In this document: positions 9,488 to 55,700 of the stretch, piece after piece
Layout: each line of letters opens with the position of its first letter
Numbering within the stretch: the stretch's first letter is position 1
Assembly: GCA_964016885.1 (NCBI GenBank)
Contig: OZ024749.1
Location: 53,444,001 to 53,508,000 of the forward strand
DNA from: Eledone cirrhosa
Taxonomy: Eukaryota
Length of the DNA: 64,000 bases
Reading direction: 5' to 3'
Program-made: the position numbers and the translations under genes
Notes under the pieces: model-generated
Told to the model about the DNA's origin: nothing
What the model saw: only the letters and a program-made list of their open reading frames with translations
The model's database searches: none

Positions 9488-9611
9488 GTAGGAGGTGAGT
9501 TTTATTGTAGAACAATAAAATTATGCATATATCGGATAAGTAGCACTCAACAGTTTATTGAACTGGAGTATATATAAGAAGAAATTAAAAGATAGTTAAA
9601 AAAGTTCCATA

Positions 9612-9682
9612 TATTTTATTATGCGCATTTCAAAAACAAATATCATCCTGGAACGATAGTTGCGTTCTCATCAGATAAAATA
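9612..9682 (-). ncRNA. Type I minimal hammerhead ribozyme (element A, left arm; sense to the FMR1-like pre-mRNA)
   Basis: Reverse complement of 9803-9873 with one change near the stem II loop; core intact. Confidence 0.85.
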
Positions 9683-9802
9683 GGGTTACATGATATGATG
9701 GCTAAAAAAACACTTGTGAACAAGAAAGTGTCTAGTCAACATATGTTGACTAGACACTTTCTTGTTCACAAGTGTTTTTTTAGGCATCATATCATGTTAC
9801 CT

Positions 9803-9873
9803 TATTTTATCTGATGAGAACGCAACTATCGTCCCAGGATGATATTTGTTTTTGAAATGCGCATAATAAAATA
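9803..9873 (+). ncRNA. Type I minimal hammerhead ribozyme (element A, right arm)
   Basis: TATTTTAT-CTGATGA-[about 16 bp stem II]-GAAA-TGCGCA-TA-ATAAAATA; 8 bp stem I; palindromic stem III ATGCGCAT. Confidence 0.85.
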
Positions 9874-10587
9874 TATGGAACTTTTTTAACCATCTTAATT
9901 TCTTCTTATATATATATATATATATGCATTCAAGGGCCAAGTCTCACTCCCATGCACCATAACACTTCATGCAATCTGCTCTTCACTCAGAGAGAAACCC
10001 TAACCCTATGTAACTATCAAAAAGGTAATAGTTCCCTGAACTTTTTTGTTTTTATTCCCACTGGTTCTTATTCTACCTTGGCTTGTGGAAAGTAGTGCCA
10101 AAATACTCAAATTAATCGACCATATCCAAAATGGCACCACTGAGAATGATAGAGGCCCATTCAGAAGGCAAAGATGCCAGAGAATACTATCTTAATCTTG
10201 GCTACATTGATTTTCATTCCAAAATGTGATTGCATACACACTAAGGTGTTCAACAGATGACATATTTTTTTACAACTATGTCAAGGTCATTGAAACTGAA
10301 GTAAATATAAACAGGCTGGAGCAAAAGTCATGCAACACCAAATAATCAACATTTACTTACAAAAATAACAAATATGAAGAATATTTGATGACAAAGTGTT
10401 ATTTTACTGGAGCACGACTTTTGCACCACCATGTATATCATTATCATCATTTTTAAGTCTGCCTTTTTCTTGGTTGCATGGGTTAGATGGAGACATTTTC
10501 AGGGAGGTTTTCTATGACTGTCAACCCAAACTTCTTAAAAAAACAGCCATGTTTGCACCTATATCTGCATACAATACATACATATAC

Positions 10588-10618
<31 letters not shown>

Positions 10619-10621
10619 AAG

Positions 10622-12006
10622 ATGATATATGAGATGCAGTTTGGTTTTGTGCCTGGGAAGAGTACAACAGATGCCCTCTTCTTGGTGAGACAAATGCAAG
10701 AGAGGTTCTTAGAGAAGAATAAGCCACTATACTTAGCCTTTGTTGACCTAGAGAAGGCCTTTGATAGGGTACCCCGATCTGTCATCTGGTGGTCCCTAAG
10801 GAAGCTAGGTGTTGAGGAATGGCTTGTGAGGACAGTGCAAACTTTGTACAGTGGTACTCTCAGTAAAGTCAGGGTAGGAATGGAGTTTAGTGAGGAATTC
10901 CAGATACAAGTAGGAGTACATCAGGGCTCGGTCCTCAGCCCGCTCCTGTTCATTATAGTCCTCCAAGCCATAACAGAGGAGTTTAAGACTGGCTGTCCAT
11001 GGGAACTTCTCTATGCTAACGATCTGGTTCTTATAGCAGAATCAGTAGAGGAGCTAGAGAATAAATTCTGGCTATGGAAACAGCAGTTGGAAGCAAGAGG
11101 ACTGAGAGTGAATCTAGCTAAGACAAAAGTGTTGATGAGTAGAAAAGAGGACAAAACCCTGATTCCGTCAAGGAAATGGCCATGTTCGATATGCAGAAAA
11201 GGAACTGGCATAAATTCTATAAAATGCACACAATGCAGATCCTGGGTACACAAGAGATGTAGCGGGATAGCAGGCAAACTTACAGGTAGGGAGAAATATG
11301 TATGCAGTAGATGTACAGGGAAATTAGACAGTAGAAGTCGCACTGATAGACACATTTTTCAAATGCAAGAGGGCGCTATAGAAGTGGTGGATAGCTTCCG
11401 GTACCTAGGAGATCAGATTAGCATGGGAGGAGGGTGTTCCGAGGCCATTGTATCTAGAATAAGGACGGGTTGGAAGAAGTTTAGGGAGCTGCTTCCTCTG
11501 TTGACGAAGAAGGGTTTCTCCCTGCGTACGAAAGGTCAGTTGTATGATGCCTGTGTGAGGAGCGCGATGCTGCATGGTAGTGAGACATGGGCAGCAACAG
11601 CAGAGGATATGCGACGGCTGGAGAGAAATGAGGCAAGCATGCTCCGTTGGATGTGCAGTGTAAATGTGCGTGAACGACCCAGCATAAATGTGTTGAGAGA
11701 GAAACTGTGTCTGAGAGGGATAGAATGTAGTGTACGGGAGAGGAGACTGAGGTGGTATGGACATGTGATGCGCATGGACGATGACCGATGGGTGAAGAAG
11801 TGCCAGGAAATGCCAGTTGAAGGAAGACGTGGTAGAGGTAGACCACGAAAAACATGGGCAGAGGTGGTGAGAACAGACCTCAGATCATTGAAGCTCACGG
11901 TGGAGATGACAAGGGACCGTGACGAGTGGAGAGATGCTGTGCTGAATAAGACCCGTCCCACCCTTGCAAGCAGGGAAAAGCGGACGTAAAATGATGATGA
12001 TGATGA
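10622..12006 (+). mobile_element. 5'-truncated RTE-clade LINE (subfamily A), RT with internal PHD finger
   Basis: QFGF, FVDLEKAFDRV, GVHQGSVLSPLLF, YAND (YADD mutated), FRYLG, RRLRWYGHVMR; (TGA)n tail; 5' end next to (TA)n. Confidence 0.95.
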
Positions 12007-12551
12007 AAGCTAGTCAAATAGAATTGATACAGCTTCAGCTGTTTCCTCACTCACTCAATGATAAAATTAGGATTTTAGAGTGCACACACGTTAATACACA
12101 CACTGCTGAAAACAAGAGACTGACATAGAATGCAAATGTATTCAAGAAACCTCTGAACATTTACTGTCTGAGATCCCAAACAAACCAATATTGTAGCAAA
12201 AAACATAAATGAGAGTAGCCTTGTCAAACTTTCTTATTTATCAGAAGCCAACCAGAGAAAGACGATGTATAGTGTAGCAGCAGTGATGACAGTGCCCCAG
12301 CATGGCCACAACACTTGAGTTAGAGAAAGCTTATAAAATAACAATTTTAGACAATTAAAATTTTCCTTTTTCTCTTTTTCTAAATATTGACTTAGGGAAT
12401 CTATTTCAATCCAAATATACTGTCAACTCTTGTAGTTAACCCTTGTTGCAGGCTTTCAGAATATAGCAACATATTCCAACATAGAATACAATAGTTACAT
12501 TATTTAATCATGCCTTTTTTTCACTTAATAACAAATTTATACAGAACTTAC

Positions 12552-12648
12552 CTCAACATTATCATCAACTTTGTAATCCAATTTTGGGGGCATTTCCTTT
12601 GGAGGTAACCGGACTTCAGAGAATTTAACTCTTTTCTCTGGCAATGTA
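12552..12648 (-). CDS. FMR1: FMR1/FXR exon 3 (TLPEKRVKFSEVRLPPKEMPPKLDYKVDDNVE)
   Basis: AG/GTAAGT sites; 97 nt; phase matches exon 2; VR(L/F)PP motif; follows a 15.1 kb intron. Confidence 0.9.
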
Positions 12649-15600
12649 CTAAAAAAAATAATAATAATAACAATAATAATGTTTTCTGATTTAGGTAGTG
12701 ACTGGTACTTTATTTTATTGAACCCCGTAAGGATGAAAGGCAAAGATAACCAGGACAGGATTTGAACTCAGAACGTTAGAATGTTGTAACTAAAAACCAC
12801 AAAGCAGTTTGGTCTGCTCTCTAGACACAAATTAATAATTACACTAAATTCACCATTACAGTTATAACTTAAACTTGACACCAGAAGATATTACTGTACA
12901 AACAAATGTTTTTATCAGGAGACTGATTGCCAAAAAACAATCATTCCTTCCAATAATATTCAGTTAAGCTCCTATTAATGTTCAATATTTGTCATTTATT
13001 GAATATTGATCCAGTAGAATTGCCTGACAAAATGCTTAACCATTAACATTAGCAAAACTGTCTTGAAAAGTACAAAACAGCAGTATGACTGCATTCATAA
13101 AAAATTAAAGTCTTTACTCCTAATTCTAATACTGCAAATTTTACAATGATTTTTCTACTATTAAAAGAAAAACATTTGAATTACCAAACCTATATTTTTG
13201 TTTAGATATTTTCTGCTAAATCATTACAGGATGTTATTATTTATAGATAAATAAAGAGGGTGTTTATTGTTGGCCTTTGGAATCTACTGGATTGTAATAT
13301 AGTCCTTTCAGCATTTCTGGATAACTAACCATTCTACATGTGTGCATGTGGAATTGCTTGAGTTATTTCACATTCCATTTTGAGGAGTATGTAATATGAT
13401 ATTTTACTGCCAAGATACCTAAATATTTCTATGTTCTTTCAAGGAGTATTATCTCAAGCGACAATTAGCTGTACAATTGCAATAAATTTTTCCAAAGACA
13501 TGTATATATATATATATTGGTCATAGCTAGGACAGCAGAGGAATCTAACAGCACCAAGGATTGAGTATCATCTCTTAAAGCAATCATGAGCCAAACAGAA
13601 AACTGAAATCCAATGTCAGAATCATGTGAACATTAATCAGTGGGGGTGGGGGAGAGAGAGCAGCAAGGCCCTATTTCTGGTTATCTAAGAACTATCTGTT
13701 ACAGCCTTGATATATTTACTGAGTGAAACAATCTAGAGTAAGAAGGATCTCTCAACCAGTTGTACTTCCTTTTCAAAATGATATATATATATATATAATG
13801 GGGATAGATTCTACATAGACAAACTAATAGTTAAAATAGTGAATTGACAGAATCAGAGAATAGGACAAAATGGTTTGCAGTATTTCTTCTGGCTGTCTGC
13901 ATTCATCATAATCGTTTTAATATCTGCTGCTAGCAAGGTTTGGATGGATCTACATAGACCAAGTCAGTACTGAAGTGGGGCTACTGATCTCTCAACCAGA
14001 CCAAGGATCTCCCTCTTGCTTATGTAGCTCAGATTTTGCTGAAGTCAACTTTGTATCTCATCCCTTTTGGGGTTGATAAAAATAAAGTACCAGTCTAGGG
14101 GGGTAAATTGATAGAGCGTTTAACAAGATGCCCTGTGGTGTTCCTTCCAAATTCTACCATGACCTACTTAAGTGGTAGACTCAACCAGTCACCTGGATTA
14201 ATGCAACTAACTGAATCATAGGCATGTCTTTAGTAGTCCACTCTGTTCCAAGTAATCTGGCCAAGGAATACTTGATACATTATCAGAAGTCATTACTGCT
14301 TGTATGGACTGTATATTCTTCTAGATAAACCACGCTTCGATAATTGGAATTTGTGATATATTTAGTGTAATTAGTTAATATGCCATCAGGCAGCTCAAAA
14401 GAAAGATAGTAATTGGTAAAACAATTATTCAGATGTTTACAGAGGATAAGATGGAGATAGTAGGATAATTCTTGATAGGAAAACTAACATTTTCCCAATC
14501 TATATTATCACTACAAAATCACATCATGACATCACTGTCACTGTGTTATTATGATCACCCATAACCTAGCTTCCTAGTACCACAAAGTGCCTAAATTATG
14601 ATACTTTACTGTTGAAAACAGTTTTAAAAAACTGCATTTTTTCTTCTTTTAGTTAAGTAAACTTAAAACAATCCATTTTGCTTGATTCTCTTTTACAATA
14701 AAGCTGGCAGTCTCCCTTCCTAGCTTTTCATGCAAGAGGGTACAAGAAAAGCATTTTTTACAAATTGCATCCTTCATACATGGTATTCAATTTTAATCAA
14801 CATCCTGTACCACATAAAACCATATTAGTAAGACATTCTTGAAAAGTACAAAACAGCACTGAAATGGCATCACATTAAAAACTAAAGTATTTATTTTACT
14901 GCAAAGTTTTACAGCTATCTATCCATAGTAAAAATACTATAAACATGAATTAATAAGCCCTGTTTTTAGATATTTTCTGCTAAATCATTACAATTAATAC
15001 TGTAAATTTTCATGACTTGTCCACTAGTAAAGATACTATAAACATTTGAATTAATAAACCTTATTTTAATCATGACAGGATGTTAAGTACTGCAAAAACT
15101 GATTTTTGTTTGCTTGTTTATTTTGTTTTTGTTAAAGATTTCATGTTTAACATTGAGACATCAATATTTTTCATAATTTGGTAGAACTTTTAACCAGACA
15201 AGAATTTGGCCCACTTTTGTTACCAATCTGGCCAAAACTGTCTCTGGTTCTATGAAACCCACACATTTTAAAGATTTCTAATTTATATCAAAATGTTCTT
15301 AGAAATGAAATATTTTTTTTATAAACCTATCAAAATTCTTCATTAATTAATTGAAACAGTGTATTTCATTAGAAATGTGGTCATGGAAGGGTTAATAAAA
15401 AGCTTAGGCATGTTTATCAATTCAATTTATCACTATTTCAGCTAACAGCCTACCTCTTTTGATACCAACCCACTCACCCACCAAAAATGACCCCTAGTTC
15501 TTATGAAATAAACTATCCATTTTAAAGGTTTCCTATATAAATTAGAATCTTTCAACAAAATTTCATATAAGAAATATTTATAAATATCACATCAATGATG

Positions 15601-17275
15601 GTTTCTGATTCAGGCACAAGACCAACCAACAATTTTGAGGTGAGGAGAAAGCTGATTAAATCAACACCAGTGCATTATTGGTACTTTATTTTACTGTCCC
15701 CATAAGGATGAAAAGCAAAGCTAACCTCAGTGGGATTTGAACTCAGAACGCAAAGGTCCGTAACTACATGCTGCAAAGCATGTTTCCAATGCACTACCAA
15801 TCCCCTTTAATAATTTTTGTAAATTCTTCTAAATTCTCTAATTAATTTAGGTACATCATATTGCATTAGAAATATGGTAATGAAAGGGTTGAAACTGAAA
15901 ACAACAACGATCCCCCTAAATAAAATTTTAAAAAGCCTTCGTGCCATTAAGTTTAGACAATCACAATATAATAAAAACAGTTATTTTTTTCACTGCATAT
16001 TTCAAATGATTGTTCCGAATGGGTTTAATTTTCAATTTTAAACATGGCCATGTGAAATCATACTATGACCAGAAGCCAGTCCCAGAAGCAGACTATGGAA
16101 ATTTATTTATTCCTGTGTTCCAACAGTTTCTTTTTTTTTTTTTAAATATGGATAACCTAATATCTTTCATTCACATGGATGAATAAAGATACATTTAAAA
16201 AATAATGTTTGTCTTGAATTTAATAAGCCAGGTCAATGTTTTCGACAGTATCAATGCACTAAAAGTACTTCAAATATATTTTATTTTATTCTAAGCACAC
16301 TTACAATTAACCGCATTTTGCTCCATTACAATACATTTGTTAATTATATTTAATCTAAACATTTCAGTTAAATTTCATCCAGTAGTAAGATGTGATACAC
16401 ATTCATTTAGTAACATTTCTTGATTGTAATAATTAATCCAGTGGCCATCTTAATCTGTACTATTCACTAAATGTTCAATAAAGAAAAATCACTAATCATT
16501 CTGATGTGCAGTTTAAAGATTTAAAATGGCATGCAAGGGACTAATATGTAAAAACAAAAATAAATAATTAAATTCTTTACAATCGAGTACTTTCATCATC
16601 ACTGTTTAATGTCCATTTTCCACGCTAGCATGGGGAGTTGTACCATTATGAGACAAGTCAGATCAGATGACCATGTCTTGCTCATACAGAACTGTTTTGG
16701 GCTTGAATTTTAAAGCATGGAGAACATTTCAAATATTTATTTCCAGTTGAAATGGATGGAAGTACTTTATAATAAACACTCAAGTTTATAAGTTTGGAGA
16801 AGTTGGTCTGAGAGAAACATTTTCACTCTCTCTCAGACAAAAGGTCAGTTTAGAAACATCCCTGACATCCTTCGTTCTCTCCACAAGATACAAACTTATA
16901 ATTTTTATGCCTAATCAGACCATCTCAAGTTTCCTGGGACTGTTTTATACGATAAATATTACACATGAAAGCTATCATTAAGTTACAAGGACAAATTATG
17001 AACATTGAAGCATCAATGCATATTCCAGACTGAATGTAAACATATGTATGCCTACTTAAACACACCACACACGCATCAATGAAGGTTTATTACATATTCT
17101 TCAGTTGTATATTTTTCCATACTGTGATAAGTGAGATAATTTTACAAAATTTGGATTGGGATAGATGCCTGGGCATGTATTTTCTACAGCAAATATATTA
17201 AATGTAGTCGTGTTCAATTTTTCAATTAGCAAAGCTAAATGGTCAACTATAAATTTAAAACAATAGTACAACCAA

Positions 17276-17610
17276 TGAAGGTGCGTGGTTTGGTGGTTAG
17301 AGCATTGAGCTCACAATCGTAAGGTTGTGAGTTTGAATCCAGGAATGGGTGGTGCATTGTGTTCTTGAGCAAAACACTTTTTTCACATTGCTCCAATTTA
17401 CTCAGCTGTAAAAATGAGTTGCAACGTCACTGGTACCAAGCTGTATCGGTCATTGCCTTTCCCTTGGACAACATTGGTGATGTGGAGTGGGGAGACTGGT
17501 ATGCATGGGCGACTGCTTGTCTTCCACAAACACACCTTGCCCAGGCTTGTGCCTCGGAGGGAAACTTTCTAGGTGCAAAACCTTGATCATTCATGAACAA
17601 AGGGGGTCCT
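17276..17610 (+). mobile_element. tRNA-derived SINE with the same head and core but a different 3' body
   Basis: A/B box-like head; TTCTTGAGCAAAACACTTT..CACATTGCTCCA core. Confidence 0.8.
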
Positions 17611-34622: not shown

Positions 34623-35448
34623 TCTCTTCTATAATTCTTTACCTACTACTTTTATATTAGTGTACTTCTACCATCTAAAATGATGAGTTTTATTAAATAT
34701 AGAGAATAATCCATTTATTTTAAAATAATGAATCAGACAATTGATAAATATTTTACCTAAAGACTTTGAACTTTGTATTTAATTGTAAAATATTACACTT
34801 TCATATCGGCCAAACTACTGGGACCAATAATTTGCAAATGGGATTGTGAATGTCACTCTGAAAATATCTCACAACACAATTGATAATTGAACCATCAAAA
34901 TTGACAGATTTTTTATTCCTAACAAGGGGCAAAAATTTAATTAAAAATGATAATATATTTACAAAAATATTCCAATATTATTTTCAAATCATTGAAAGAT
35001 TGTTTCCTATTTTACTAACTTGTATAATACTTGTGTCAACGTTCACCCAGGTTGAGTTGAGGCTGTTCCAAATAGTGCTACATCCACTGCATTACAAACA
35101 GAAACTGCCCATGCACAGCAATCACAGATGCCCAATGCAGATATTGTTAGCCAGTCATGATTCCAATGGAGGACACCATAAATGCAAGGACCAGATATTC
35201 AACAGAATAAGACCAGAAAGAAGAGGAGGCTCAGAGAAGAACAGATAGTCATTGTGAAGGTCACAGTGTGTGTAACAAAAGAGCTTTGACAATAACCAAT
35301 AATAATAAAACTGAAGTGAAAATGAAATAGTGCATATGTTTTTATTGGCAATATGACCATCCCCAAATATTACAATCTATTTCAAATCACTGTTTCACAT
35401 AACAAATCTTGCAAAACAAATTCATAAATGTATACATATATATATATG

Positions 35449-35597
35449 TAGAAGTTATATTTAATTTGTTGGGATACAACAAGCAAATATTTTTATAACT
35501 GATATAAAGCACTCAACAAATTTTTGGAGTAAAAATACAATATATTAACAAATGGAAACTATGGTTATATAAATATAGTTTCCATTTGTTAATATAT

Positions 35598-35600
<3 letters not shown>
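35449..35600. mobile_element. Fold-back element D: 26 bp arms (35537-35562 / 35575-35600) plus tail, within (TA)n
   Basis: Perfect inverted repeat; tail AGCACTCAAC...GGAGT shared with elements A and B. Confidence 0.7.
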
Positions 35601-35628
<28 letters not shown>

Positions 35629-43110: not shown

Positions 43111-43148
<38 letters not shown>

Positions 43149-43258: not shown

Positions 43259-43295
<37 letters not shown>

Positions 43296-45896
43296 CCCCA
43301 TCATGGTACAGCACTACCACTTTACAGAATGGGCTTGGTGTATTTTATCATGGCACTAGAACTATCCCATTACAACACTAGGGCCCTCGTTGTCTACCCT
43401 CAGGCTGGGGAGAAAGTAGTGATGCTGAGAAATGTATTTGGTACATATATACCAGTCCATTCTGTAAATGTGGTCGGCATTAAGAAAGGCATCCAACCGT
43501 AGAAACCAAACCAGAAACAGTTCTGTATGAGGAAGACATGGTCACCTGATCTGATTCGTCTCACAATGTCTGTCTAACCCACGCTATCATGGAAAATGGA
43601 CGTTAAACAGTTATGATGATGATACCACTGCATCCACAAAGAAATTAACGTGATGATGCAAGAAAATAGACCAACAGTAATTCAACTTGTACTTGGTGCT
43701 AATTCTTTTTAGAGTACTTCTATACCACATACCTTACACTACTTAAACCAACTCCCCCACCAAAAAAAAGAAAAGAAATGGAAAAGAACCCATATATAGA
43801 TATGTTGAACACATCATAGCAAAATGTGTTGAAATTACAAGGCATTATGATAACATCCTAGTTAAACCTTTTATAAATGATAAATTACTCACACCTACAT
43901 ATACCGCCAATCTAATTAGGACAATTATTTGATTGTCATTACATTTAATACAACTACCATGTAGAAGACAATTCCTTCACATTCCTCACACCACCTACTC
44001 ATAGTTATGTCTCTCTCTAAATATATGTATATAATATATATATATACATACATACACGCACGCACGTCAGAACATCACTCTCTCTCCACACACGTCAAAG
44101 GAACGAGCCAGATTTCACTTTTTCATTCGTTTGTTTGTGATTTGTATTACATTCATTTTGCTTTAATGAATGAATGGAATGGTTATTGTTAAAAGCAATT
44201 GTTGTTAGAACTTTGATGTCTTTGATTCTGTCAGCCAAACTCCATCTAGTAAGGCCTTATAAAGGGCACAACACTAAAACTGTACTAGTACATCTATAGC
44301 ATTGTGCCTCCCAACATTAACCCTTTTGATACTGTTTGTTTTAAAGTATCTATATCTATCTAAAAATCCCCCTTAGTAAGAAACTTTAAGTTACATTTCA
44401 AACAGTTTAATAATGAGATGCCTCATAAAAGTTGCACAAGTGCCAGCCTTTAACCTGTGCAAACATGGAAGAATGGGCATAGAAGCAATGACTTCCTGAC
44501 TCTAGATATATCTTAAGCATCAAACAAAGATTTCTAATCTAATCCAGGGGCTTTTCACTCCTGTTGGAGGAACACCTCCATTTTCTGTTTGGTTGTAGTC
44601 ATACCTTCAGGGGTGTAGCCATATTCACCATGTTTGCAAATTGTGGGTTGGTGAGGCTATTTCACTCAAAGTTGGGGTGCATGGCCATTGAAATTGAGTT
44701 CAACAGCTCTTGTTTTTTGTGCTGCTGAGGTTTCACATACCCTCCTCACCAGACCAGGGTCTAATTGCCGACTCCTCGACTATCAAGTGTGTTGTACTGG
44801 GTTACATGGTACCAGTAGTAAGTAGAAACCTGACCTGACTTACAAAGATTTAGTATTGAATAAGTTAATTCTTGTCCCATCGAAACAGAGACATGTATAC
44901 ATTGTGTCTACTAAGAAACTAAGACTTTAACTGGGTCAGCTTAAAAGATTACCAGTAATATGTTTTACATAATAACTATATTTCCATTCAATAAATCCAA
45001 GTGACTGCTCTGTGAAGACTGGTAATGGCAAATGACAGGACTTTAACTCTTAAATGTATTGTTATAAAAAATGTGTGTGTGTGTGAGAGAGTCTGGCAGA
45101 ATGTTGGTTGACAGTCTGCCAAACTACATCCAGGCAATGCAACCCCCACATCACTAACACAAGAGAAGTAACACCACAAGAGCATGAGGATAGAGAAAAA
45201 GCCCTCAATGCCCATATGGTGATGTGGACAAATATAATGCAGCCCAACAAAAGGACTGCCAACAACTTCCAGGCCTGGAACAATGACGTGCCAGCGTTGT
45301 ATGGGCTTCGAAAAGACCATAAAACGAGCAGTGACCCTGTCACGAGACCACCAACACGGCCAGTCTGTGGAGCTAACATTGCTAGTAACTACAGACTGTC
45401 CTACTTCCTCTCCCTGATCATACGCCCCATCATTGAAATGTCCCCAGATGTATGTGACAGCACGGAGGACCTCCTCAGCAGAATCGGCGAGGATAACCAA
45501 TCTAGGGACCGAACAAACTGCATAATGGGTAGTATGGATGTTGTGTCCCTGTATCCATCTATTGATGTGGATTTTGCTGTGGAGAAATGCGTAGAAATGA
45601 TCAGTGAGAGCAATGTTGAGTTGAGTTGCGTGGGATTGATACCTGTGAGCTGGGACTCCTACTTAAACTTACCTATAGTAATAATTATCTAGACGCATAT
45701 GACCTTAGCAACCTGTGCCCTACAAGACCAGCAAGAGGCAGACCACCTACCATTACCTCAATGGCCAAGAAAACCTACACAGATGGATGGAACGGGTGGA
45801 CCAGAGCCATACGGACCTCTGAAAACCACAATGAACTAAAGAAAATGATTACACATGCGGTGGGGGCCAGCATAAAATTAACCCTTAAGGAACATA

Positions 45897-47812
45897 TCAT
45901 CATCATCACCGTTTTACGTCCGTTCTTCCACGCTAGCATGGGTTAGACGGGTTGTCCTGTTGTGTGCAGTGTCTGGTCGGCTGACCATGCCTTGCTCATA
46001 CAGGAACTGATCTGGCTTGATTTCTACAGCTGGATGCCCTTCCTAACACCAACCTCATTTACAGTGAGTGCTGGGAGCTTTTTCGTGGCGCCTACACGTC
46101 CACTTTACAGTGTGGGCTGGGTGCTTTTTTTTGCCGTGGCACCTCCACGATCACCTTGCGGTGGGGGCATATTGATTATATGCTTCAACATGTACCCATG
46201 GGAGGTCGGGTACTCTGTATTACTGCGTGACGCCAGAAGTCACGGTCGTGTGTCATTGTCTTTGAGAGGTGTAATTGGGTAAGGTCGGCTTTTATCACCT
46301 CATCCCAGGTCATCTTGGGTCTCCCCACCCCGCGGTTTCCATCAACTTCTAGTGCTCTGCACCTTTTTATGCAGCTCTCATCCTTCATACACATCACATG
46401 TCCATACCAGCGCAACCGCCTCTCCTGCACACAGCATTTGATTCCTCTTATGCTCAGTCTCTCTCTCAATTCATTTATGCTTTGTTGTTCACGTATATTA
46501 CTGTTACACATCCATCGGAGCATGCAGGCTTCGTTTCTCTCTAATCTACATAAGTCTTCCACCTTCAGCGCCCAGGTCTCACTACCATGCAACATCGCTG
46601 TTCAGATACACGTATCATACAGTCTGCCTTTCATTCTGAGGGAGAAGCCTTTTGCAGCTAGCAGTGGTAGTAGTTCTCTAAACTTCTTCCATCCCGTTCT
46701 TACCCTAGTTATTGTACTTTCTGAACACCCACCTCCGTTGCTAATTCGGTCACCTAGGTAGCAGAAGCTGTCTACTGTTTCTACAGGGCCCTCCCAGAGA
46801 TTGGTGGTACTTGTTTCCTGTGGCTGTTTGCTGCTTGCTGTCCCAGCACAGCTGCTACATGTGAAGCCTACATTCTTAATTAAGCTTCCTGAGATCCCGC
46901 TACATCTCTTGTGTACCCATTGTTTGCATTTGGGGCAGAGAATGGAGTTCCTACCTACACCTTTCCTACATACTGAGCAAGGCCATTTCTCTGAGGGGTT
47001 CTGTTTTCTCGTTTACTTACAAGGACCTTAGTCTTTGTCATGTTGACTTTGAGACCCTTTCTCTCTAGTCCCTGCTTCCAGGTTTGGAATTTATTCTCTA
47101 GTTCTATCATAGATTCAGCTATGAGTGCGAGGTCATCAGCATACAGGAGTTCCCATGGGCATCCGGTCTTAAATTCCTCCGTTATTGCCTGCAGGACTAT
47201 GATGAACAGGAGAGGGCTAAGAACAGCCCTGGTGGACCCCAACCTGTACCCTAAATTCCTCGCTATACTCATTGCTAATCCTAACTTTGCTGACTGCTCC
47301 CCTATACATGGCTTGTACCGCTTTCACAAGCCATTCATCTACTCCTAGTTTTCTAAGAGCCCACCAGATTACAGCACGTGGAACTCTGTCAAAGGCTTTC
47401 TCAAGGTCGACAAATGCCAAGTAGAGTGGCTTACTTTTAGCTAGGTACTTTTCCTGTAATTGCCTCACAAGGAAGAGGGCATCAGTGGTGCCTCTTCCTG
47501 GTACAAACCCAAATTGCATCTCGTCTATATTCACCCGGTCCCTAATCAGCTGTGCTATAACTCTTTGTTACTTTCATGACCTGGTCCATCAACTTTATAC
47601 CTCTATAGTTTCCTCTATCTAGTGCATCGCTTTTGCCTTTGTAGCAGTTGACAATGATGCTACTGCACCAATCTTTTGGTATGGCCCCTTCTAGTATTGT
47701 GTGGTTATAGTGTGACCTACAGACCCAGATGCCTTCAGCATCTCGGCAGCTATACCCGATGGACCGGTTGCCTTCCCCATCTTCATATCTCTGATTGCCT
47801 TACTTACTACGC
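45897..47812 (-). mobile_element. RTE LINE (subfamily B), frameshifted, nested in the Penelope RT
   Basis: GKATGPSG, QFGF, YADD, PHD cysteines, RRLRWYGH; Penelope RT sequence resumes on both sides. Confidence 0.95.
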
Positions 47813-49279
47813 TGTTCAAATTTAATGGAAAAACATATGCCCAAGAGGAGGGAGCAGCCATTAGTGTTAGCATTGCAGGCGACATAGCTAACTTATTCAT
47901 GGTATGGTGGGACAGTAGACTTAAACTTAAACAACAATTAGAAGACCCCCTTAACCCTGATAATGTACTCCCGCTAAGTTGATGATATAAACATCGTAGT
48001 TAAAACACCCCCACTAGAGAACAGTCAGGAATTAGAGAAAAACACAATGGAAAGCATCCAGCAAATAGCTAACTCCATCCACCAGAGTATTAGAGTTACT
48101 ATAGACTACCCAAGCAAACACCCCAACCATTGATTACCTGTACTAGACACAGAGCTCTGGTTAGATACCACTAACAAAAAACAAATCCTCCATTCCCATT
48201 ATGCCAAACCCATGACTTCCAAATATCTGATCCACCGAAACTCAGCTGTTTCGGACCATACCAAAATCAACATACTGATTGCGGATTTGGTACGGGTGAT
48301 GAGAAATGTGTCCCGCATGTGCAACCCCGAAGAACTAGAGAGACACATACAACACTTCATCCACCGTATGCAGTTCTCTGGTTACAATCAGAGAGATAAA
48401 ATCAGAGTGTATAGAGGAGCCAGAACCAAATGGTAAATAATGACACAAATGGGACCTGCCCCTTGTATAGGAGCAAATTTTAGAATAGAAAGAACTAGGA
48501 ATAAGGCTAATAGAATAAACTCATGGTATGATAGCAATAAATACCAGTGTAATGTTCATCGATACAACCCCTAGAGGTGAATTAGCTTAGAAATTTAGAA
48601 GGGCCCTAGATAAACTCAATATTAAGATAGTAGAAAGACCAGGTACCTCCATAAAAACACTTATTAGCAAGATATACCCTTTTCAAAGACCCCCCCCCCC
48701 CTGTATAGATAAGAAATGCATAACCTGTAAATTAAGCCCCCATATTAACTGTAAAACTAGAAATGTAGTATATAGCATAAGATGTACTGAAGGACAATGT
48801 AGAGATAAAAATATAGTGTACATAGGTGAGACAGCTCGTAGTGGAGGGGAACGGATAAATGAACACTGGCGAGACCTTCAAGATAGTAAAGAATCATCTG
48901 TACTCTACCAACATGCTAAAATAGAACATAAGGGTAAATTAGAGAACAGAAATAAAAATAGAATCTACACACAGAAAAGACGCAATGTTTAGACAAATCA
49001 CAGAGGCAATAAACATAAAAGAATTACAACCAAAATTAAATAGAAAACATGAGTGGAACAGCAACATCACAACTTACAATTGAGGACAAAATGAAAACAC
49101 ACACGCACATAGAACAAACAACCAACCAGTAACATGTAAATAAACAAATAAACGAATATAAACACACACAGACACCCGGATGTGGCGCATGCGCAGACTG
49201 AGCACACAACACACACACAGAAACAAGATGGTGTAGGACAGAACAAAAGAGAGGCACAAAAACAAAGAAAAGACTCCCC

Positions 49280-49325
49280 AGTCACTGAAGAGGTCACAGA
49301 ATGTGTGACAAAAGAACTTTAATAT
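49280..49325 (+). ncRNA. Degenerate hammerhead-like motif in the Penelope 3' end (related copies at about 35249 +, 57312-57346 -, 58425-58470 +)
   Basis: GTCA-CTGAAGAG-GTCAC..GTGAC-AAAAG; other copies keep GAAA but read TTGAGGAG; no single copy intact. Confidence 0.5.
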
Positions 49326-49521
49326 ATAAACAACCATCTGGTTGTGGAACCAACCAACCAACCGGAAATTTATAAATTTATTATAATAAATTGAAGTGAA
49401 AGCAACTGGTGTGTGTGTGTTTCGTATTGGCAACATGACCCTCCCAAAGTATAACAATATATATATATATTTATATTAATTCAAAATATTAACAAAAATA
49501 GACAATTCTTGTGATCAAGTA

Positions 49522-49588
49522 TATTTTATTATACATATTTCAGAGCTACTGAGCTAACTTCAACAGTACGTCCTCATCAGATAAAATA
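49522..49588 (-). ncRNA. Type I minimal hammerhead ribozyme (element B, left arm)
   Basis: TATTTTAT-CTGATGA-GGACGTACTG...CAGTAGCTCT-GAAA-TATGTA-TA-ATAAAATA. Confidence 0.78.
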
Positions 49589-49671
49589 AGATGATGCATG
49601 ACATACCCTGTCATAGTAGATGGTTATGAATCTTAACCATCTACTATGTCAGGGTATATCATGCATCATCT

Positions 49672-49738
49672 TATTTTATCTGGTGAGGACGTACTGTTGA
49701 AGTTAGCTTAGTAGCTCTGAAATATGTATAATAAAATA
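49672..49738 (+). ncRNA. Core-mutated hammerhead copy (element B, right arm)
   Basis: Same layout, but the core reads CTGGTGA instead of CTGATGA. Confidence 0.65.
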
Positions 49739-49937
49739 TACTTGATCACAAGAATTGTCTATTTTTGTTAATATTTTGAATTAATATTAATAACTCCGGA
49801 AAACCATTCCAGTTGAGTGCTTCCAATCTATTGTAAAACTCATTCTTTGATTTATTCATTGAACCTTGTTTAACCTTTAAATATATATATATATATATAT
49901 ATATAGATATATATATATATGTGTGTGTGCATGTGTA

Positions 49938-49980
<43 letters not shown>

Positions 49981-49981
<1 letters not shown>

Positions 49982-51730
49982 ATCATCATCGTTTAACGTC
50001 CATCTTCCACGCTAGCATGGGTTTGGATGGGAATTTTCCCACTTGAGGCAAGATTGGTTGTCTTGCTCGTATAGGACTGTCTGGCGGGTTTTCTACGGCT
50101 GGATGCCTTTCCTAACACCAACCACGTTTACAGTGTGGACTGGAAGGTATTTACTGGGTTACCTACATGGCCACATTACAGCGTGGACTGTGTTTTTTTT
50201 TTTTTTTGTCGTGACACCTACACGACCTCATTTATTTAGGACTGGATGTTGTGGTACCAACATAACTTTACATTGAAAGGGGCGGTGTAGTAGGTTTTAC
50301 TTTGTATTTAGGTAAGGCGGGTCTTCTCTATTACTGAGTGCCGCCAAAGATCTCGGTCCAGTGACATTGTCTTGGAGAGGTGTAAGTGTGTGAGGTCGGA
50401 GTTTATCAGGTCGTCCCACGTTTTTCTGGGTCTACCTACTCCGTGGCTACCGTCTATTTTGATCGCCCTGCACTTTTTTATACAGCTGTCATCTTTCATG
50501 CACATCACGTGACCATACCAACGTAGTCTTCTCTCGAGTAAACAGCATCTGATTCCTCTTATTCCTAATTTCTCACTTAGTTCATTTATGCTTTGCCGTT
50601 CACGTATATTACTATTACACATCCAACGGAGCATGCAAGTTTCGTTCCTCTCCAGTCTGCGTAGATCCTCTGCACACAATGCCCAAGTCTCATTGCCATG
50701 TAACATTGCTGTTCGTATGCAGGCATCATACAGCCTGCCTTTCATTTTTAGAGAGAAACCTTTAGTGGCCAATAGTGGTGTAAGCTCTCTGAACTTTTTC
50801 CATCCCGTTCTGACTCTAGCTACTGTACTTTCAGAGCACCCTCCACCACTGCTGATTTTGTCACCCAGGTAATGGAAGGTGTCCACTATTTCTATAGAAC
50901 CATCTGTGCAATGGAATGAGCTAGTATTCTGTGGGAACTTGCTGCTACTTATTGCACCTGAGCACCGGCCACATATAAAATCTATATTCTTCGTTAGCTT
51001 ACCTGTGATCCCACTACATCTTTTATGCACCCATACTTTGCATTTGGGACATAAAATGGAGTTTCTGCCTACTCCTTTCCTACACACTGAGCATGGCCAT
51101 TTCCCAGATGGGACCAGTGCCCTATTTTCTTTCCTACATACTAGAACTTTAGTCTTAGGCAGGTTAATTTTCAGGCCTTTTGATAGGCCATGCTTCCATG
51201 TTTGGAATTTCTTCTCTAGTTCAGCCATTGATTCAGCTATAAGCGTTAGATCATCAGCGTATAGGAGTTCCCATGGGCAGCCGGTCTTGAACTCCTCTGG
51301 TATAGCCTGAAGGGCAATAATAAATAGTAGGGGGCTAAGGACGGAGCCTTGATGAACACCAACTTTTACGCTAAACTCTTCACTATATTCGTTGTTAATT
51401 CTAACCTTGCTGACTGTTTCTTTATACATGGCTTGTATAGCTCTCACAAGCCATTCATCAACACCTAGTTTTCTGAGAGCCCACCAGATAATGGGGGCAT
51501 GGGACTCTGTCAAAGGCTTTCTCCAAGTCAACAAAAGCTAAGTATAGGGGTTTACTTTTAGCTAGGTACTTCTCCTGTAGTTGTCGTACAATGAAAAGAG
51601 CATCTGTGGTACTTTTACCTGACACAAACCCGAACTGCATTTCATCCAGATCAATTCGCTCTCTGATTAGTTGCGCTATTACTTTTTCTGTGACCTTCAT
51701 GACCTGGTCAATTAATTTAATGCCTCTATA
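49981..51730 (-). mobile_element. RTE LINE (subfamily C), 5'-truncated, flanked by TA repeats
   Basis: ORFs 51458-51733 and 50308-51534 form a frameshifted RT (YRGIKL, YADD, PHD, FHYLG). Confidence 0.95.
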
Positions 51731-51943
51731 CATATATATATAATGTGTGTTATATACATAAATTTGATCTAAGAGATATCAAATGTAGTCTGCAAGAGAA
51801 AAGACTGAGCTGGTATAGACAGACCAGGTCACCTGGATGAAGGTGACTATGTTGTAAGACCAGAAACACCCAGTGATTCCAGGGTACCACACTGATGTCA
51901 CAAAATTTTGTATTGTCTATTTTTTTACTTTTTATGGTTTCAG

Positions 51944-52025
51944 AAAAAACTGTGAAACGAATGAATTGGGTAAAATGTTGGAAGAACTTCATAGAAAAAA
52001 GCAACTTGAAGATAATGACCGAGTG
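51944..52025 (+). CDS. WDR44: WDR44 putative exon 4 (KNCETNELGKMLEELHRKKQLEDNDRV)
   Basis: TTTCAG acceptor, GTATGT donor; phase 2->0. Confidence 0.75.
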
Positions 52026-52564
52026 GTATGTTTGTCTTTAACACTTGTGAACAACTTTATCATTTCCACTTTTTTTCAGAAATATTTTTACCTTTTAAGA
52101 ACTTCTATTAATTTGACAATGGGTTAACACAACAACTCCAGTTAGCAGAGAAATCTGAGTATGGAGTTATGGTGAGTCACATATATTCTAGCCATTACAA
52201 AAAGCAAAATGAATGCTTCACCTTTGAAAAAGAGATGACTCGAGAAGATCTTCTATTCACCTTGTGTTTATATCTAAATAGTACAAGTTTATTATCATCA
52301 TAATCATTTAATGTCCCCGCTTTCCCTGTTAGCAAGGGTTGGACACGTCTACATTGACCAATTTAATACTGAAGTGAGGCTACTGACCTTTCAGATGGGA
52401 TAAGGGTACATATATACTATTTTCTGTTTGTCAATTATATTACACTGGACTTTCTATATGTTAATAATCAACAGTCTTGTTATTTACAAATATTTAAATG
52501 AAAACAAAACCTGCAAAGAAAATTTTGTCATTATGAAATTGTTTTCTTTTCTATTTATTTTTAG

Positions 52565-53176
52565 GAAGCAGAAAAGAAGGTACTAGAAAATCGGAAGAGA
52601 CGGCGTAAAGTTGAATTGTTGAGGCAAGCTTTGTCTGAAGATAAATCACCTCTAAAGAATGACAGTGAAGATTTATTTAAAGAATTAGATGCTCCCAGCA
52701 ATGTTGATAAAGCTGAAGCATTAATATTTCCTTCTGATTTTGATATTAACAATATACAGTTGGCTTCTAATTCTGGTGGCAATGATATAATTTCCAAAAA
52801 TGGTTGTCCTCTTAGTCTTTCATCTCCTCTGTTGGAGCAGTCTACTTCTTCTTCTCTTGTTCAGACCACAACCAGTCACCCTTTCACGGACATCAGTATG
52901 ACCGTCGCTGTCCCTGTTCCTGAAAATTTTCCAAGTACTGGTGTTCTGCAAGATGCGTATTACCCTGCTTCTACAGATATGTGTCTAAAAAATAATATAG
53001 TCAGTTTAGTACCAAAAGACAATGAACCAGATATCATCCAAAGTGCTAAACCCCGTAATTTAACTCCTCCTAACACAATGGACTCCAAGAATCAGAATGT
53101 GTTGTCTTCTACTCAGAATCCACCTGTTGCTCCTCCAAGACGTAAACGAAGACCAAAAAATCTATCGACAAGTCAT
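52565..53176 (+). CDS. WDR44: WDR44 exon 5, 204 aa low-complexity/proline-rich region
   Basis: Open 612 nt between TAG and GTAAGT; EPDIIQSAK, PRNLTP and PPVAPPRRKRR resemble WDR44 EPDIVAST, PRHLTP and PAPPPRKRK. Confidence 0.85.
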
Positions 53177-53811
53177 GTAAGTATTAGCTTTTTTGTTCTG
53201 TTGAACTTATAATAATTAACTCTTTCTTGTTGGCTGTAGCAACAATGTGTGTTGCAATTGAATAAACTATATACTTTTCCTACTAAATTCTCCTAATGTC
53301 TGATATGGTATGGTTTGATCCCGTAACTCCAGGTGGAGTCATAGAACGCTGTATTGACACAGCATTTCTTGGGTATTTTATTCCTGGCAGAACCCATCCC
53401 TCTCCAGGTCTGAAAACAACAAGATTTCTTCCAGAGAAAGATAGAGAGTAAGAGAGAGGAAGTGAAAAAGAGATATAGAGGAAGAATCGATCCCATTACT
53501 AGACTGATACTATCAACCTCAGATGGATAAAAAGCAAAGTTGACTTCAACAGGATTTGAACCGAGAGAGCAGAAAGCTGGATCAAAAACTGCAAAGCTTT
53601 CTATCTGATGTTCTAATAACTCTGTCAAATAAAATAATAAGCTTCCACTTGAAAGTGACTGAAATATGAAGAGTTAAATAAGAATGAATCTGTCTTGTTT
53701 AATCTATTTTGTAGGTAAGATTTGCAAATATAGAACTATTCTTAATTAATCATTGTATTCTAATATTCAGTAATTTACCTAAAAAAACTTCTCTATATTT
53801 TTACTTTGCAG

Positions 53812-53949
53812 GAAAATCTATCCATGTATTGCGTTTCTGCTACAGAGTTACTAACACCAGTATCTACAGTGGAATGTTTAACCAAAGAACTTCAGCATTC
53901 TCTTGACTTACAAAGTGCCTTAGAAGGAAGTAGAATAATCAATGCAGAG
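53812..53949 (+). CDS. WDR44: WDR44 exon 6 (ENLSMYCVSATELLTPVSTVECLTKELQHSLDLQSALEGSRIINAE)
   Basis: TGCAG acceptor, GTCAGT donor; 138 nt, phase 0-0. Confidence 0.8.
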
Positions 53950-54655
53950 GTCAGTGTTATTCCAGCTTTCAGACATTTTTTCTCAGTTGAAATTGTTTGG
54001 CAACTTTTCTATGGTTGGATGCCCTTCCTTATCACTAACCACTTTACAGAGTGTACTGGGTATGTTTATCATGTGGATCACCAACACTCAGGAGATTGTC
54101 ATGCATCCTCCTGACTATTTTTTGGGCAAGCTTTCTATGGCTGGATGCCCTTTTCTGACCACTTTACGGCATGTATTGAGTGCATTTATCATATAGATCA
54201 CCAATACTAGGTTGTTAGTGATCTGAGTTGTCTTAAATTCATTCTAGTCTATTGACTGAAGAATGCTTTCATGTATTTGATTATATTTTACCATTAAAAC
54301 TACAAATAAATCTTCAGAATATTATTGTTCTTGCTGCACTTGGTGCCTATGTATAAAGCTGTAACTCCATCATAGTGACATACAGTGTTTCTTGGGCAGT
54401 TTTTTTTTTTATATCTAGCAAAGCTCATCCCCCTCCAGGTTTAAACAGGAGATTTCTTCCGGAAAATGAGAAAGAGTGATAGATAAGAATCGACCCTAAT
54501 ACTGGACAAATATTTTTTTTTATCGACCTTGAAAGAGTGAAAAGTAAAATTGACCTTGACTGGATTTGAACTCGGTGAAGAGAGCTGGTTTGACTACTGC
54601 TAAGCATTCTATCTGTTGTTCTAACAACTCTGTCTATTCCCTGCCTCGCCTGCCT

Positions 54656-55277
54656 CTAAAATTGTCAAGAAGGCTGAGGGTGTCTTGGCATCACTCAGCA
54701 AGACCTCTGTCAGTCGCTTTCCAGCTATCTATTTAAAGCTGTATATAGCTATGGTGTGGCCACACTTAGAATTTGCATCACCAGTCTGGAACCCCTATCT
54801 TGCTCAGAACATTGACCTCCTGGAAACTTCAGAGATGTGCAACCAAGCAAATACTTTCCATCAGGCATCTACCATACTCTGAACGCCTTGCTTCCCTGGG
54901 CATAGATACATTGATGATCCAACGTCTCGCAACTGACTTGGTAAACACCCACAAAATTATTAACCATCTTGCCAACAACAACCCTGAGCACCTTTTTGAA
55001 TTTCATGCGTCTAACACACATGGTGGGCATGCCCACAAAGTCAGAAAACAGCACAGCTCCCATGACTTTCGGAAACATTTTTTCATGCTCAGAGTTGCTG
55101 AAGCATGGAACAAACTATCTGCATCAGTTGTCTCGGAAATTAACAAATGATGAAGGTAGTTTGTTCCATGCTTCAGAAACTCTGAGCGTGGAAAAATGTT
55201 TTGAATGTAATGGGAGCTGTGCTATTTCTTGACTTTGTAGGTATGTCCTCATGTGTTAGACACATGAAATTAAAAAT
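54656..55277. mobile_element. CR1-type LINE 3' fragment (+, 54656-55131) abutting an inverted diverged piece (about 55145-55277)
   Basis: LYIAMVWPHLEFASPVWNPY, QRCATK, RKHFFMLRVAEAWNKL are typical CR1 ORF2 C-terminal motifs. Confidence 0.88.
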
Positions 55278-55321
55278 ACGATATTGATAATTAATGATTT
55301 CTAATTTTAATACAAGGCCAC

Positions 55322-55364
<43 letters not shown>

Positions 55365-55507
55365 TGGGAGGGCAGTTACTTGACTGGTACTATATCAACT
55401 TCAAAAGGATGAAAGACTAAACAGCTTTGCATTCCTTATTGATAATTTATATATATATATATATATATCTTTCAATATATATATATACTGTATATATATA
55501 TATATAT

Positions 55508-55699
55508 ATAGGAACCAGTAAGACCCCGACAGCTGAGCTCAAGCCGTTTCGACGGCTAATTTCATCCAGAATTAGCCGTCGAAACGGCTTGAGCTCAGCT
55601 GTCGGGGTCTTACTGGTTCCTATTACCCACTCTACTACCTCAAGTATTGAGTACTTTGGTGCGTTATGGTCCACCTGGTTCCTTACCACATTTCCTTCG

Positions 55700-55700
<1 letters not shown>
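55508..55700. mobile_element. Fold-back element C: perfect 54 bp arms (55508-55561 / 55570-55623) with 3' part of a hammerhead, tail, within (TA)n
   Basis: GACGGCTAATT-loop-AATTAGCCGTC-GAAAC-GGCT...AGCT-GTC; tail contains TTGAGTACT; flanked by (TA)n. Confidence 0.8.

Follow-up and report, generated by a model that had tools for sequence, protein, structure and literature searches.

Four fold-back elements in (TA)n repeats of an octopus genome: probable stumps of Penelope-like elements with a shared bulged tail hairpin

The window, i.e., the whole stretch of 64,000 bases analyzed here, contains four fold-back elements, A to D. They are very likely insertion stumps of 5'-truncated Penelope-like elements (PLEs), and the Hydra clade is their probable source. 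All four tails carry a bulged hairpin, which we also met behind the hammerhead of a coral-type family outside the window. On balance we favor a combined explanation, Hydra-type PLE stumps whose start sites of reverse transcription were set by hairpins.

The whole window has six local palindromes. One is a TA/TG run (49895-49978), and another, at 55073-55201, is imperfect and lies inside a LINE-like fragment. The other four are the elements, listed here with their flanking repeats:

9420-9485, unstranded: (TA)33 adjoining the tail of A
9487-9914, minus strand: element A, with a tail, direct arm 9570-9742 (sense on the minus strand) and inverted arm 9743-9914
9907-9925, unstranded: (TA)n where A's inverted arm has its short end
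35449-35600, minus strand: element B, with tail 35449-35536, direct arm 35537-35568 and inverted arm 35569-35600
35602-35628, unstranded: (TA)n adjoining the short end of B, with a shorter run (35437-35446) on the tail side
49468-49880, plus strand: element C, with inverted arm 49468-49626, direct arm 49627-49792 and tail 49793-49880
49881-49978, unstranded: tract rich in (TA)n that adjoins the tail of C, whose short end meets a short run (49458-49469)
55508-55700, plus strand: element D, with inverted arm 55508-55561, an 8-nt center, direct arm 55570-55623 and tail 55624-55700
55701-55730, unstranded: (TA)15 adjoining the tail of D, with another run (55491-55510) at the short end

A previous reading of the letters without database searches (the sequence-only reading) had described four elements with a tail and a fold-back, and this was borne out: they are head-to-head palindromes with a one-sided tail and (TA)n at both ends. 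In 4/4 elements an inverted, 5'-truncated copy is joined head to head, and a tail of about 77-90 nt is present on one arm only. The arms are identical at 166/173 (A), 30/32 (B), 154/159 (C) and 54/54 (D) positions. The tips are not all perfect: A has no spacer, the center of B is imperfect, and C and D have spacers of 7 and 8 nt. The proposed association with TA repeats holds; (TA)n adjoins 8/8 ends, the outer arm end of B being 1 base off the run, whereas only 0.56% of the window positions are situated at most 3 nt outside a run of at least four TA units. Because the flanks of the four elements lie inside (TA)n, target-site duplications are unreadable there.

Palindromes are a familiar artefact of long reads. 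An assembly error from chimeric fold-back reads would agree with the identical arms of D, and no aligned piece spans the stretch of C. Yet the arms of A, B and C are mismatched at 3-6% of sites, their ends lie at different points defined by motifs, and the same layout is found in unrelated metagenome contigs with TSD-like repeats. An artefact is thus scarcely credible.

Do the four elements constitute a single family, as had been claimed? Pairwise alignments of A-B, A-C and B-C each scored above 300/300 shuffles. In contrast, when D was aligned with A, B and C, 244, 144 and 75 of 300 shuffles scored as high, i.e., D is not alignable to any of them beyond chance. The best reading is that the four stumps are independent insertions from at least two PLE families.

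Hammerhead motifs are located in A, C and D:

9611-9682, minus strand: type I motif in the direct arm of A, with an 8-bp stem I, canonical core and short palindromic stem III
9803-9874, plus strand: second copy, in the inverted arm of A (descriptor match)
49522-49588, minus strand: type I motif with canonical core in the inverted arm of C (descriptor match)
49672-49738, plus strand: motif in the direct arm of C, its core with a private change at 49683 (A in other copies)
55570-55609, plus strand: 3' half of a hammerhead in D, comprising the 3' side of stem II, GAAA, a 6-bp stem III and the GTC triplet (by eye)

A hammerhead descriptor run over the window matched both arms of A and C and nothing else, i.e., 4 matches compared to 0.13 per shuffle (30 shuffles). 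The full descriptor requires the 5' core, therefore the half motif of D is outside its reach; the tip of D was placed in or at stem II. No descriptor match was obtained in B because B is truncated 3' of the hammerhead. Rfam searched over the window up to E 5 returned 40 matches, most of them to miRNA models in palindromes and TA runs and none to a hammerhead; local Rfam scans of A and C equally had no hammerhead match. The hammerheads of A and C are predicted, by motif match, to be of type I and near the 3' end. The claim of a common stem I and core is correct for the 9.5-kb and 49.5-kb elements (A and C), yet does not extend to the 35.4-kb element. The earlier assignment to ribozyme-bearing, Penelope pLTR-type ends in TA repeats is supported. 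Since B is devoid of a hammerhead, the motif appears dispensable for the fold-back structure and is best viewed as a passenger of the 3' end.

The tails share another feature. The 9-mer TTGAGTRCT occurs 6 times in the window compared to 1.47 expected, a count reached in 0/100 shuffles. As had been reported, it is present in all four tails (9542, 35508, 49813, 55647), although in C it starts at 49813, not at 49812; the two remaining sites are 4365 and 38219. What the sequence-only reading had missed is that the 9-mer constitutes the 3' side of a bulged hairpin, RCTC-stem-TT-GAGY-RCT:

9542-9569, minus strand: bulged tail hairpin of A
35508-35530, minus strand: bulged tail hairpin of B, the best window match of a model built from coral-type tails only (E 0.084)
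49793-49821, plus strand: bulged tail hairpin of C, with one mismatch in the upper stem
55629-55655, plus strand: bulged tail hairpin of D

A hairpin descriptor, itself derived from these four, matched precisely the four tails in the window and nothing in 100 shuffles; the extra 9-mers at 4365 and 38219 did not match. Folding of the single hairpins is weak (z -0.9 to -2.2). Pairs in the four hairpins were counted by an anchored script, as MAFFT misaligned them. The covariance model from coral-type tails produced 21 window matches, among them B in first place and D at E 8.1; A and C were missed. In 18 distinct hairpins 50/54 upper-stem cells are paired; the shuffled mean is 41.8 and 0/5000 shuffles were as high. 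Lower-stem letters are nearly invariant in the coral set, and were also imposed by the search pattern, hence pairing of the lower stem is without covariation support in this set. Papers, as distinct from repeat libraries, were searched for the hairpin and for two-strand priming, and no description of the hairpin was found.

The hairpin was examined outside the window using a metagenome search with a hammerhead-only pattern, which yielded 120 matches, of which 72 pass a structure filter. Among the passing matches of adequate length, 22/63 have the hairpin 42-51 nt downstream of the hammerhead; among non-passing matches it is 1/47, and that one is a family member. In this way a coral-type family was reached in which the hammerhead is followed by the same hairpin; it includes a full-length Hydra-clade element, L034. 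L034 is organized as pLTR-ORF-pLTR. Its ORF of 713 aa has the Hydra-clade protein motifs RWK and DKT and a CxCX5C linker, and no CCHH. With the window elements it has the hammerhead stem I/core and the hairpin in common; Rfam scores its hammerhead at 16.8 bits, short of the gathering score (34). A second hairpin is positioned 17 nt ahead of the ATG of L034, and at the unit junction of the coral-type Hydra element the two copies are 60 nt apart; the basis of the double hairpin is this one locus and a by-eye reading of two consensi.

The insertion ends of the coral-type copies are related to these hairpins. Of 36 distinct tail-less copies, 24 end 0-8 nt before hairpin 1 and 12 elsewhere, and all alignable tailed copies (10/10) end 3-7 nt before hairpin 2. 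An upstream inverted piece is present in 17/69 copies. Of 14 inverted copies inspected, 8 have a clear shared 3' end, all with one short and one tailed arm (two of these tails are damaged), and either arm, upstream or downstream, can bear the tail. The copies L060 and L052 lie between TSD-like direct repeats (13 and 16 nt, respectively). Hydra-type ORF remnants lie upstream in 23/40 copies with enough flank. The copies of this family form a series of truncations of a coding element. The counts are not independent, because the copies make up a single family group in which some loci are probably duplicates. No Hydra relatives were found in viral contigs; in prokaryote genomes there was one contig, a tail-less 3' end (L120).

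Element C belongs to a highly repeated family (2,161 contigs of one run match 287 of its bases), in keeping with the very high copy number that had been anticipated. In 4/4 runs, other sequence continues upstream of the tip of C in reads and contigs, up to 180 nt in one contig. Neither a coding partner nor a second hairpin was seen for the octopus families in these data, in which 49869-49898 was skipped. C is a 5'-truncated copy of a longer element. Molecule-end pile-ups at 49779 and 49782 in a RAD run were not counted; they coincide with TTAA and may be restriction ends. Opposite-strand joints at C, most of which start at its own tip (49627-49630), were not counted as further fold-backs.

The sequence-only reading had proposed a dedicated, non-autonomous retrozyme-like system, i.e., short elements with a circular RNA stage mobilized in trans. 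The hammerheads in A and C and the very high repeat depth would be compatible with this, as would the absence of an ORF in or adjoining the four elements; moreover, PLE pLTRs are the reported source of animal retrozymes (10.64898/2026.07.22.740005). However, tandem monomers, the defining feature, are absent: the window has no head-to-tail array with hammerheads. The two hammerheads of A, and likewise those of C, face opposite ways, arm lengths range from 32 to 173 nt, sequence runs on upstream of the tip of C, and the related coral-type family consists of truncated coding elements. We consider this proposal improbable. Far less probable still are fold-back or MITE-like DNA transposons with the arms as terminal inverted repeats and a preference for TA targets. 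Long inverted repeats in TA invite such an interpretation, and for Octopus vulgaris both MITE and unclassified TIR families have been recorded. Yet the tail is one-sided and outside the inverted repeat, hammerhead motifs are present, the elements have neither fixed length nor shared termini, sequence extends past the tip of C, and the same end structure occurs on the RT-encoding L034. The DNA-transposon reading is already largely refuted.

Which PLE clade gave rise to the stumps? Insertion into (TA)n at 8/8 ends fits Hydra, yet is not diagnostic because it is shared with Naiad and Neptune. In the six published new Hydra consensi the hairpin is, by eye, clear in 3/6 and looser in 2; it is doubled at the 5' end of Hydra-1_Ajap, and no such double was seen in Hydra-1_Obim. 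By eye, the 3' ends of Hydra-1_Obim and of octopus Naiads match none of the four elements. The Naiad clade was rejected as source: A and C have complete hammerhead cores, and no by-eye match to three octopus Naiad ends was seen. Among the matches listed for Naiad and Chlamys passages no such hairpin end occurs; the comparison by clade extended to Hydra, Naiad and Chlamys sequences. No Hydra-type ORF is present in the window (best domain E 0.97). A broken RT-GIY-YIG element (about 45070-49457) adjoins C and was rejected as its parent as it belongs to another clade: its three relatives score E 0.03-0.95 against the Hydra profile, and it has its own hammerhead-like 3' end in four copies. C lies beyond one copy in the same orientation, B about 70 nt beyond another in opposite orientation; the remaining two copies have no fold-back.

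How may such stumps originate? A PLE protein has been reported to nick and extend both target strands, with two internal RNA start sites delimiting the tail (PMC11167929). Judging from the PLE literature, a transcript would span the 3' end of one unit and the 5' leader of the next, and would be bound by the RT-GIY-YIG protein. At the junction it would present the two bulged hairpins read in the coral-type Hydra element, ahead of which, by a few nucleotides, coral-type insertions have their short end (hairpin 1) or their tail end (hairpin 2). Both strands of a TA-rich target would be nicked and each nick would prime a cDNA, starting at a UA-rich spot immediately 5' of one hairpin; because each nick would prime at its own hairpin, the hairpins would set both start sites and the tail would be the stretch between them. 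Two cDNAs that stop early would be joined head to head, creating a palindrome with a short and a tailed arm. Thus, the best reading is that two hairpins fix two start sites, one per nicked target strand. That the hairpins are start-site signals at all we regard as evenly balanced. More tentative is the notion that an identical hairpin pair, from corals to octopus, serves as rulers for a dimeric, telomerase-related RT and explains tail and inversion together; the second hairpin of the pair is known from the coral-type locus and by-eye consensi. In its boldest form the enzyme would stutter on the UA-rich start site and help to build the flanking (TA)n, a rather improbable extension prompted by one locus: A is inserted in an RTE-type LINE fragment which lacks about 75 bp at the insertion site, and three intact copies of this LINE have only TATAT near the junction and no microsatellite.

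Hairpin-primed inversion, as suggested earlier, survives as one of two candidate mechanisms, although two-strand priming explains the differing ends better. In self-priming, one cDNA (or an antisense template) would double back on itself and be copied, and the tail would be left over once an endonuclease had resolved the molecule. The hairpin would in that case be recognized, as DNA or RNA, for cleavage or by a binding protein, or would act as a signal in the 5' leader, rather than as a ruler of start sites. All four elements have arms of nearly the same length, an observation that fold-back copying fits at least as well as two-strand priming does. Both arms of C come from one source, because both share a G at 49714, where about 99% of the aligned depth in run X1 has C. 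Self-priming was proposed for junction palindromes (PMC3846280), and the tail was ascribed to endonuclease resolution (PMC8557442). On the other hand, by eye the upstream sequence of other copies has no natural inverted repeat at the tip of C, and the direct arm of C is 7 nt longer than the inverted one. Self-priming alone does not account for a tail on either arm and two fixed ends, each before a hairpin, and in PMC11167929 RT start sites were mapped at both ends of the tail. We consider it unlikely, though a more serious contender than retrozymes.

The PLE layout is known, and only one PLE has been reconstituted in vitro so far. A hairpin common to octopus and coral-type elements, and doubled by the insertion ends in the latter, permits a cheap and precise test, the subject of which is an RNA signal of the retroelements closest to telomerase. 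Further, a descriptor of 25-30 nt is a marker for ORF-less stumps, which repeat pipelines tend to file as unknown, MITE or fold-back. Should the hairpin have no role in initiation, the finding is an ordinary one, an octopus genome in which PLE stumps are abundant.

Inverted head, tail and TA bias are described features of PLEs (PMC3846280, PMC8557442). The sequence-only reading held that the system was possibly not catalogued in this lineage; the fold-back layout is on record in both papers, and for the hairpin we found no paper. Animal non-LTR retrozymes (PMC7229834; 10.64898/2026.07.22.740005) are likewise short, non-coding and PLE-related and possess type I hammerheads, yet they are head-to-tail tandem units with hammerheads, whereas the four elements are single head-to-head stumps of variable length. 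In Anolis Poseidon PAc (Frangieh et al., 2024, PMC11167929) two ends also delimit a tail, the target is AT-rich, and an upstream hammerhead is dispensable for insertion; it differs in clade, its start sites are in an AC-rich stem-loop in the ORF, and the passages of that paper drawn on here report no repeated hairpin. Penelope with inverted pLTR (Arkhipova et al., 2013, PMC3846280) has the head-to-head inverted repeat, AT-rich targets, a junction palindrome and an optional tail on one arm only; here we have two stumps only, and the tails are longer. Closest is the Hydra clade (Craig et al., 2021, PMC8557442). Its tails are 30-40 nt as opposed to about 77-90 nt here, no ORF is attached here, and the hairpin is unmentioned in the passages of that paper used. 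It shares with the four elements the (TA)n bias, 5' truncation, an inverted 5' copy, occurrence in octopus and a hammerhead near the 3' end, often with a T before GAAA. By eye, most of the six new consensi in print, and L034 as well, show a tail hairpin of this kind.

A scan of the whole window yields six local palindromes, and four of them are elements of one layout: an inverted arm stands head to head with a direct arm, a one-sided tail follows and (TA)n borders both ends. The layout claimed in the sequence-only reading is thereby upheld. The elements, read as 5'-truncated stumps of Penelope-like elements (PLEs), are

Palindromic elements with a one-sided tail
9487-9914: element A, palindromic with one-sided tail, arm identity 166/173
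35449-35600: element B, palindromic with one-sided tail, arm identity 30/32
49468-49880: element C, palindromic with one-sided tail, arm identity 154/159
55508-55700: element D, palindromic with one-sided tail, arm identity 54/54

All four tails carry the 9-mer TTGAGTRCT, which occurs six times in the window against 1.47 expected. The claim of one family of four holds for A, B and C, which are mutually related by alignment, and fails for D, which has only layout and motif in common with them. The proposed retrozyme-like system is not supported: retrozymes are tandem units (PMC7229834; 10.64898/2026.07.22.740005), and the window has none. An imperfect palindrome at 55000-55270 (59-nt arms, 11-nt spacer) has no tail hairpin; its translation looks like what we take to be a CR1/L2-type LINE end.

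A type I hammerhead descriptor matches four times in the window, once in each arm of A and of C, at a background of 0.13 matches per shuffle. Stem I has 8 bp and stem III is short and palindromic; these motifs are putative ribozymes of the dimer-type form reported in metazoan repeats (PMC4209133). Window-wide and local scans with Rfam gave no hammerhead match for A or C. Core position 49683 is A in other copies of C's family, hence the G in the direct arm of C is private to that arm. B is cut too short to possess a hammerhead; D, by eye, begins within it and retains the 3' half alone. The 8-nt centre of D (55562-55569) is like the antisense of the hammerhead core plus one extra base, which suggests that the junction was formed inside ribozyme stem II.

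The 9-mer forms the 3' side of a bulged hairpin, in which RCTC leads into an upper stem that is followed by a TT bulge, GAGY and RCT. The hairpin is predicted in all four tails, with a larger bulge in C, each fold being weak on its own. A hairpin descriptor matches exactly these four tails and nothing in 100 shuffles; it was derived from the same tails and therefore demonstrates specificity only. The inverted arm ends 6 nt before the hairpin in B and 5 nt in D; in A and C an AT-rich spacer merges into the TA run and the arm ends 0-7 nt before the hairpin. The distance from hairpin start to outer TA run is 83 bases in B, 88 in C, 72 in D and, by eye, about 82 in A. At 4365-4385 (minus strand) the 9-mer is present with ACTC upstream, lacking upper stem and arms, possibly a decayed tail.

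Metagenome contigs were scanned with a pattern built from the A/C hammerhead alone, resulting in at least 120 matches in 119 loci. Among the matches listed, 72 of 120 passed a stem filter, 9 of them too short; the hairpin is located 42-51 nt downstream in 22 of the 63 long-enough passing copies and in one of 47 long-enough non-passing matches, itself a family member. The hairpin-bearing copies are one family group, labelled coral-type because its protein match is named Acropora digitifera (94% identity). A covariance model from these tails alone gave a weak result in the window, with B best (E 0.084), D at E 8.1, and A and C missed. Locus L034 is a complete pLTR-ORF-pLTR element (pLTR, PLE terminal repeat) whose 713-aa ORF has the RWK and DKT motifs given for the Hydra clade of PLEs (PMC8557442); 3,045 database proteins are related to it at E 1e-20 or better. 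Hydra-type ORF remnants are found in 23 of 40 listed copies with at least 600 bases upstream, and among the matches listed 5' ends lie between 2 and more than 1,100 nt upstream of the hammerhead. By these remnants and spread-out ends the family is a series of truncated copies of a coding element. A Hydra-type 3' end with hammerhead on a contig filed as bacterial MAG (L120:2501-3090) is probable animal contamination. At L052:93-368 a coral-type head-to-head insertion is flanked by a 16-nt direct repeat and has a local 49-nt duplication at its junction.

Coral-type insertions end at two fixed points, both immediately 5' of a hairpin, and a palindrome has one end of either kind. In L034 a second hairpin comes after the tail at the 5' junction; it stands 60 nt from hairpin 1, which lies behind the hammerhead, and 17 nt ahead of the ATG. 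Among the matches listed, 24 of 36 distinct tail-less copies end 0-8 nt before hairpin 1 and 12 elsewhere; of 22 tailed copies, all 10 alignable to the L034 junction end 3-7 nt before hairpin 2. An inverted piece lies upstream in 17 of 69 listed copies, and 14 were inspected after removal of three duplicates. A clear 3' end is common to both arms in eight, each with one short and one tailed arm (two tails are damaged, and L025 and L032 seem to be a single locus); in the remaining six, inverted pieces are short or partial only.

We propose that each nick would prime one cDNA at a UA-rich spot 5' of one hairpin, and that the two cDNAs would stop early and be joined head to head. In an Anolis PLE both strands are nicked and extended, two internal start sites delimit the tail, and insertion does not need hammerhead cleavage (PMC11167929). 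Its chief competitor is fold-back copying in which an endonuclease resolves the product; this alternative, or a single source RNA, is favoured by near-equal arm lengths and by a rare variant common to both arms of C. In the hairpins themselves, upper-stem pairing over 18 distinct sequences amounts to 50 of 54 cells versus 41.8 shuffled, and 19 coral-type rows contain one pair with changes on both sides, the control ignoring relatedness in both cases. By eye, the consensi in the supplement of PMC8557442 show the hairpin at the 3' end of Hydra-2_Amil and Hydra-2_Ajap, whereas Hydra-1_Ajap has two copies at its 5' end, spaced 61 nt apart. The resemblance is looser in Hydra-1_Crog and Hydra-1_Amil, and Hydra-1_Obim shows no such hairpin.

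Four of 23 listed sequencing runs were mapped on 49612-49898, the last 30 bases skipped as repeat; 2,161, 8 and 78 contigs and 2,503 reads were placed. Summed word depth in one run reached 10^5 versus 6.6 in the locus-specific first bin, which is not a copy number. C's family is clearly abundant, as the predicted high repetition had it. Ahead of 49627-49629, loose ends in each of the four runs continue into different sequence that is similar among them (up to 180 nt, one contig); thus the tip of C, its head-to-head centre, is a truncation point. One contig passes straight into TA at the short end.

The surroundings are rich in other repeats:

Neighbouring features
about 45070-49457: broken C-terminal-EN PLE, non-Hydra clade, CX4CX2C linker and CCHH-type GIY-YIG by eye
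49280-49325, 35247-35292, 57305-57350 (minus strand), 58423-58470: decayed minimal hammerhead-like motif at 3' ends of the non-Hydra PLE, four copies
10625-11989, 46185-47570, 50308-51700, 57600-58470, 60500-61900: RTE-type LINE copies, PHD-like finger inside the RT ORF
61953-63013: LTR retrotransposon fragment, Gag-like frame then retroviral-type aspartyl protease match
4918-54575: SINE-like short repeat family D7, at least 13 copies
2353-2676 (41-bp period), 56098-56521 (13-bp period): minisatellites
52565-53212 (no Pfam match), 58949-59091: likely host exons

The non-Hydra PLE is interrupted by an RTE-type LINE (about 45896-47700), stops and frameshifts; in the top 5 of 64 matches its protein relatives are from Octopus vulgaris (62-77% identity), which makes the host octopus-like. 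C occupies the TA run at the end of this PLE, B lies near a further copy of the PLE's 3' end, and so two of the four 3' ends are closely followed by fold-backs; we read this as shared targeting, not linkage. A is embedded in an RTE-type LINE fragment lacking about 75 bp (flanks 9301-9419 and 9926-9960). Since three intact LINE copies have only TATAT and no microsatellite at this site, (TA)n at A may postdate or result from insertion. A-D are probably intronic or close to a gene.

Searches of an open-access library turned up no paper that describes the hairpin or reports that it is doubled. For O. vulgaris 31 recently active Penelope-like families are reported, without clade or structure in the text available (PMC13282606). 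Inverted heads, junction palindromes and an optional tail are described for PLEs (PMC3846280, PMC8969392), and the TA bias of Hydra elements is in print (PMC8557442). A-D are further instances of this known PLE insertion type: the layout is ordinary, but the hairpin offers a specific candidate for an RNA signal in the unsettled mechanism by which PLEs make their tail and inverted head.
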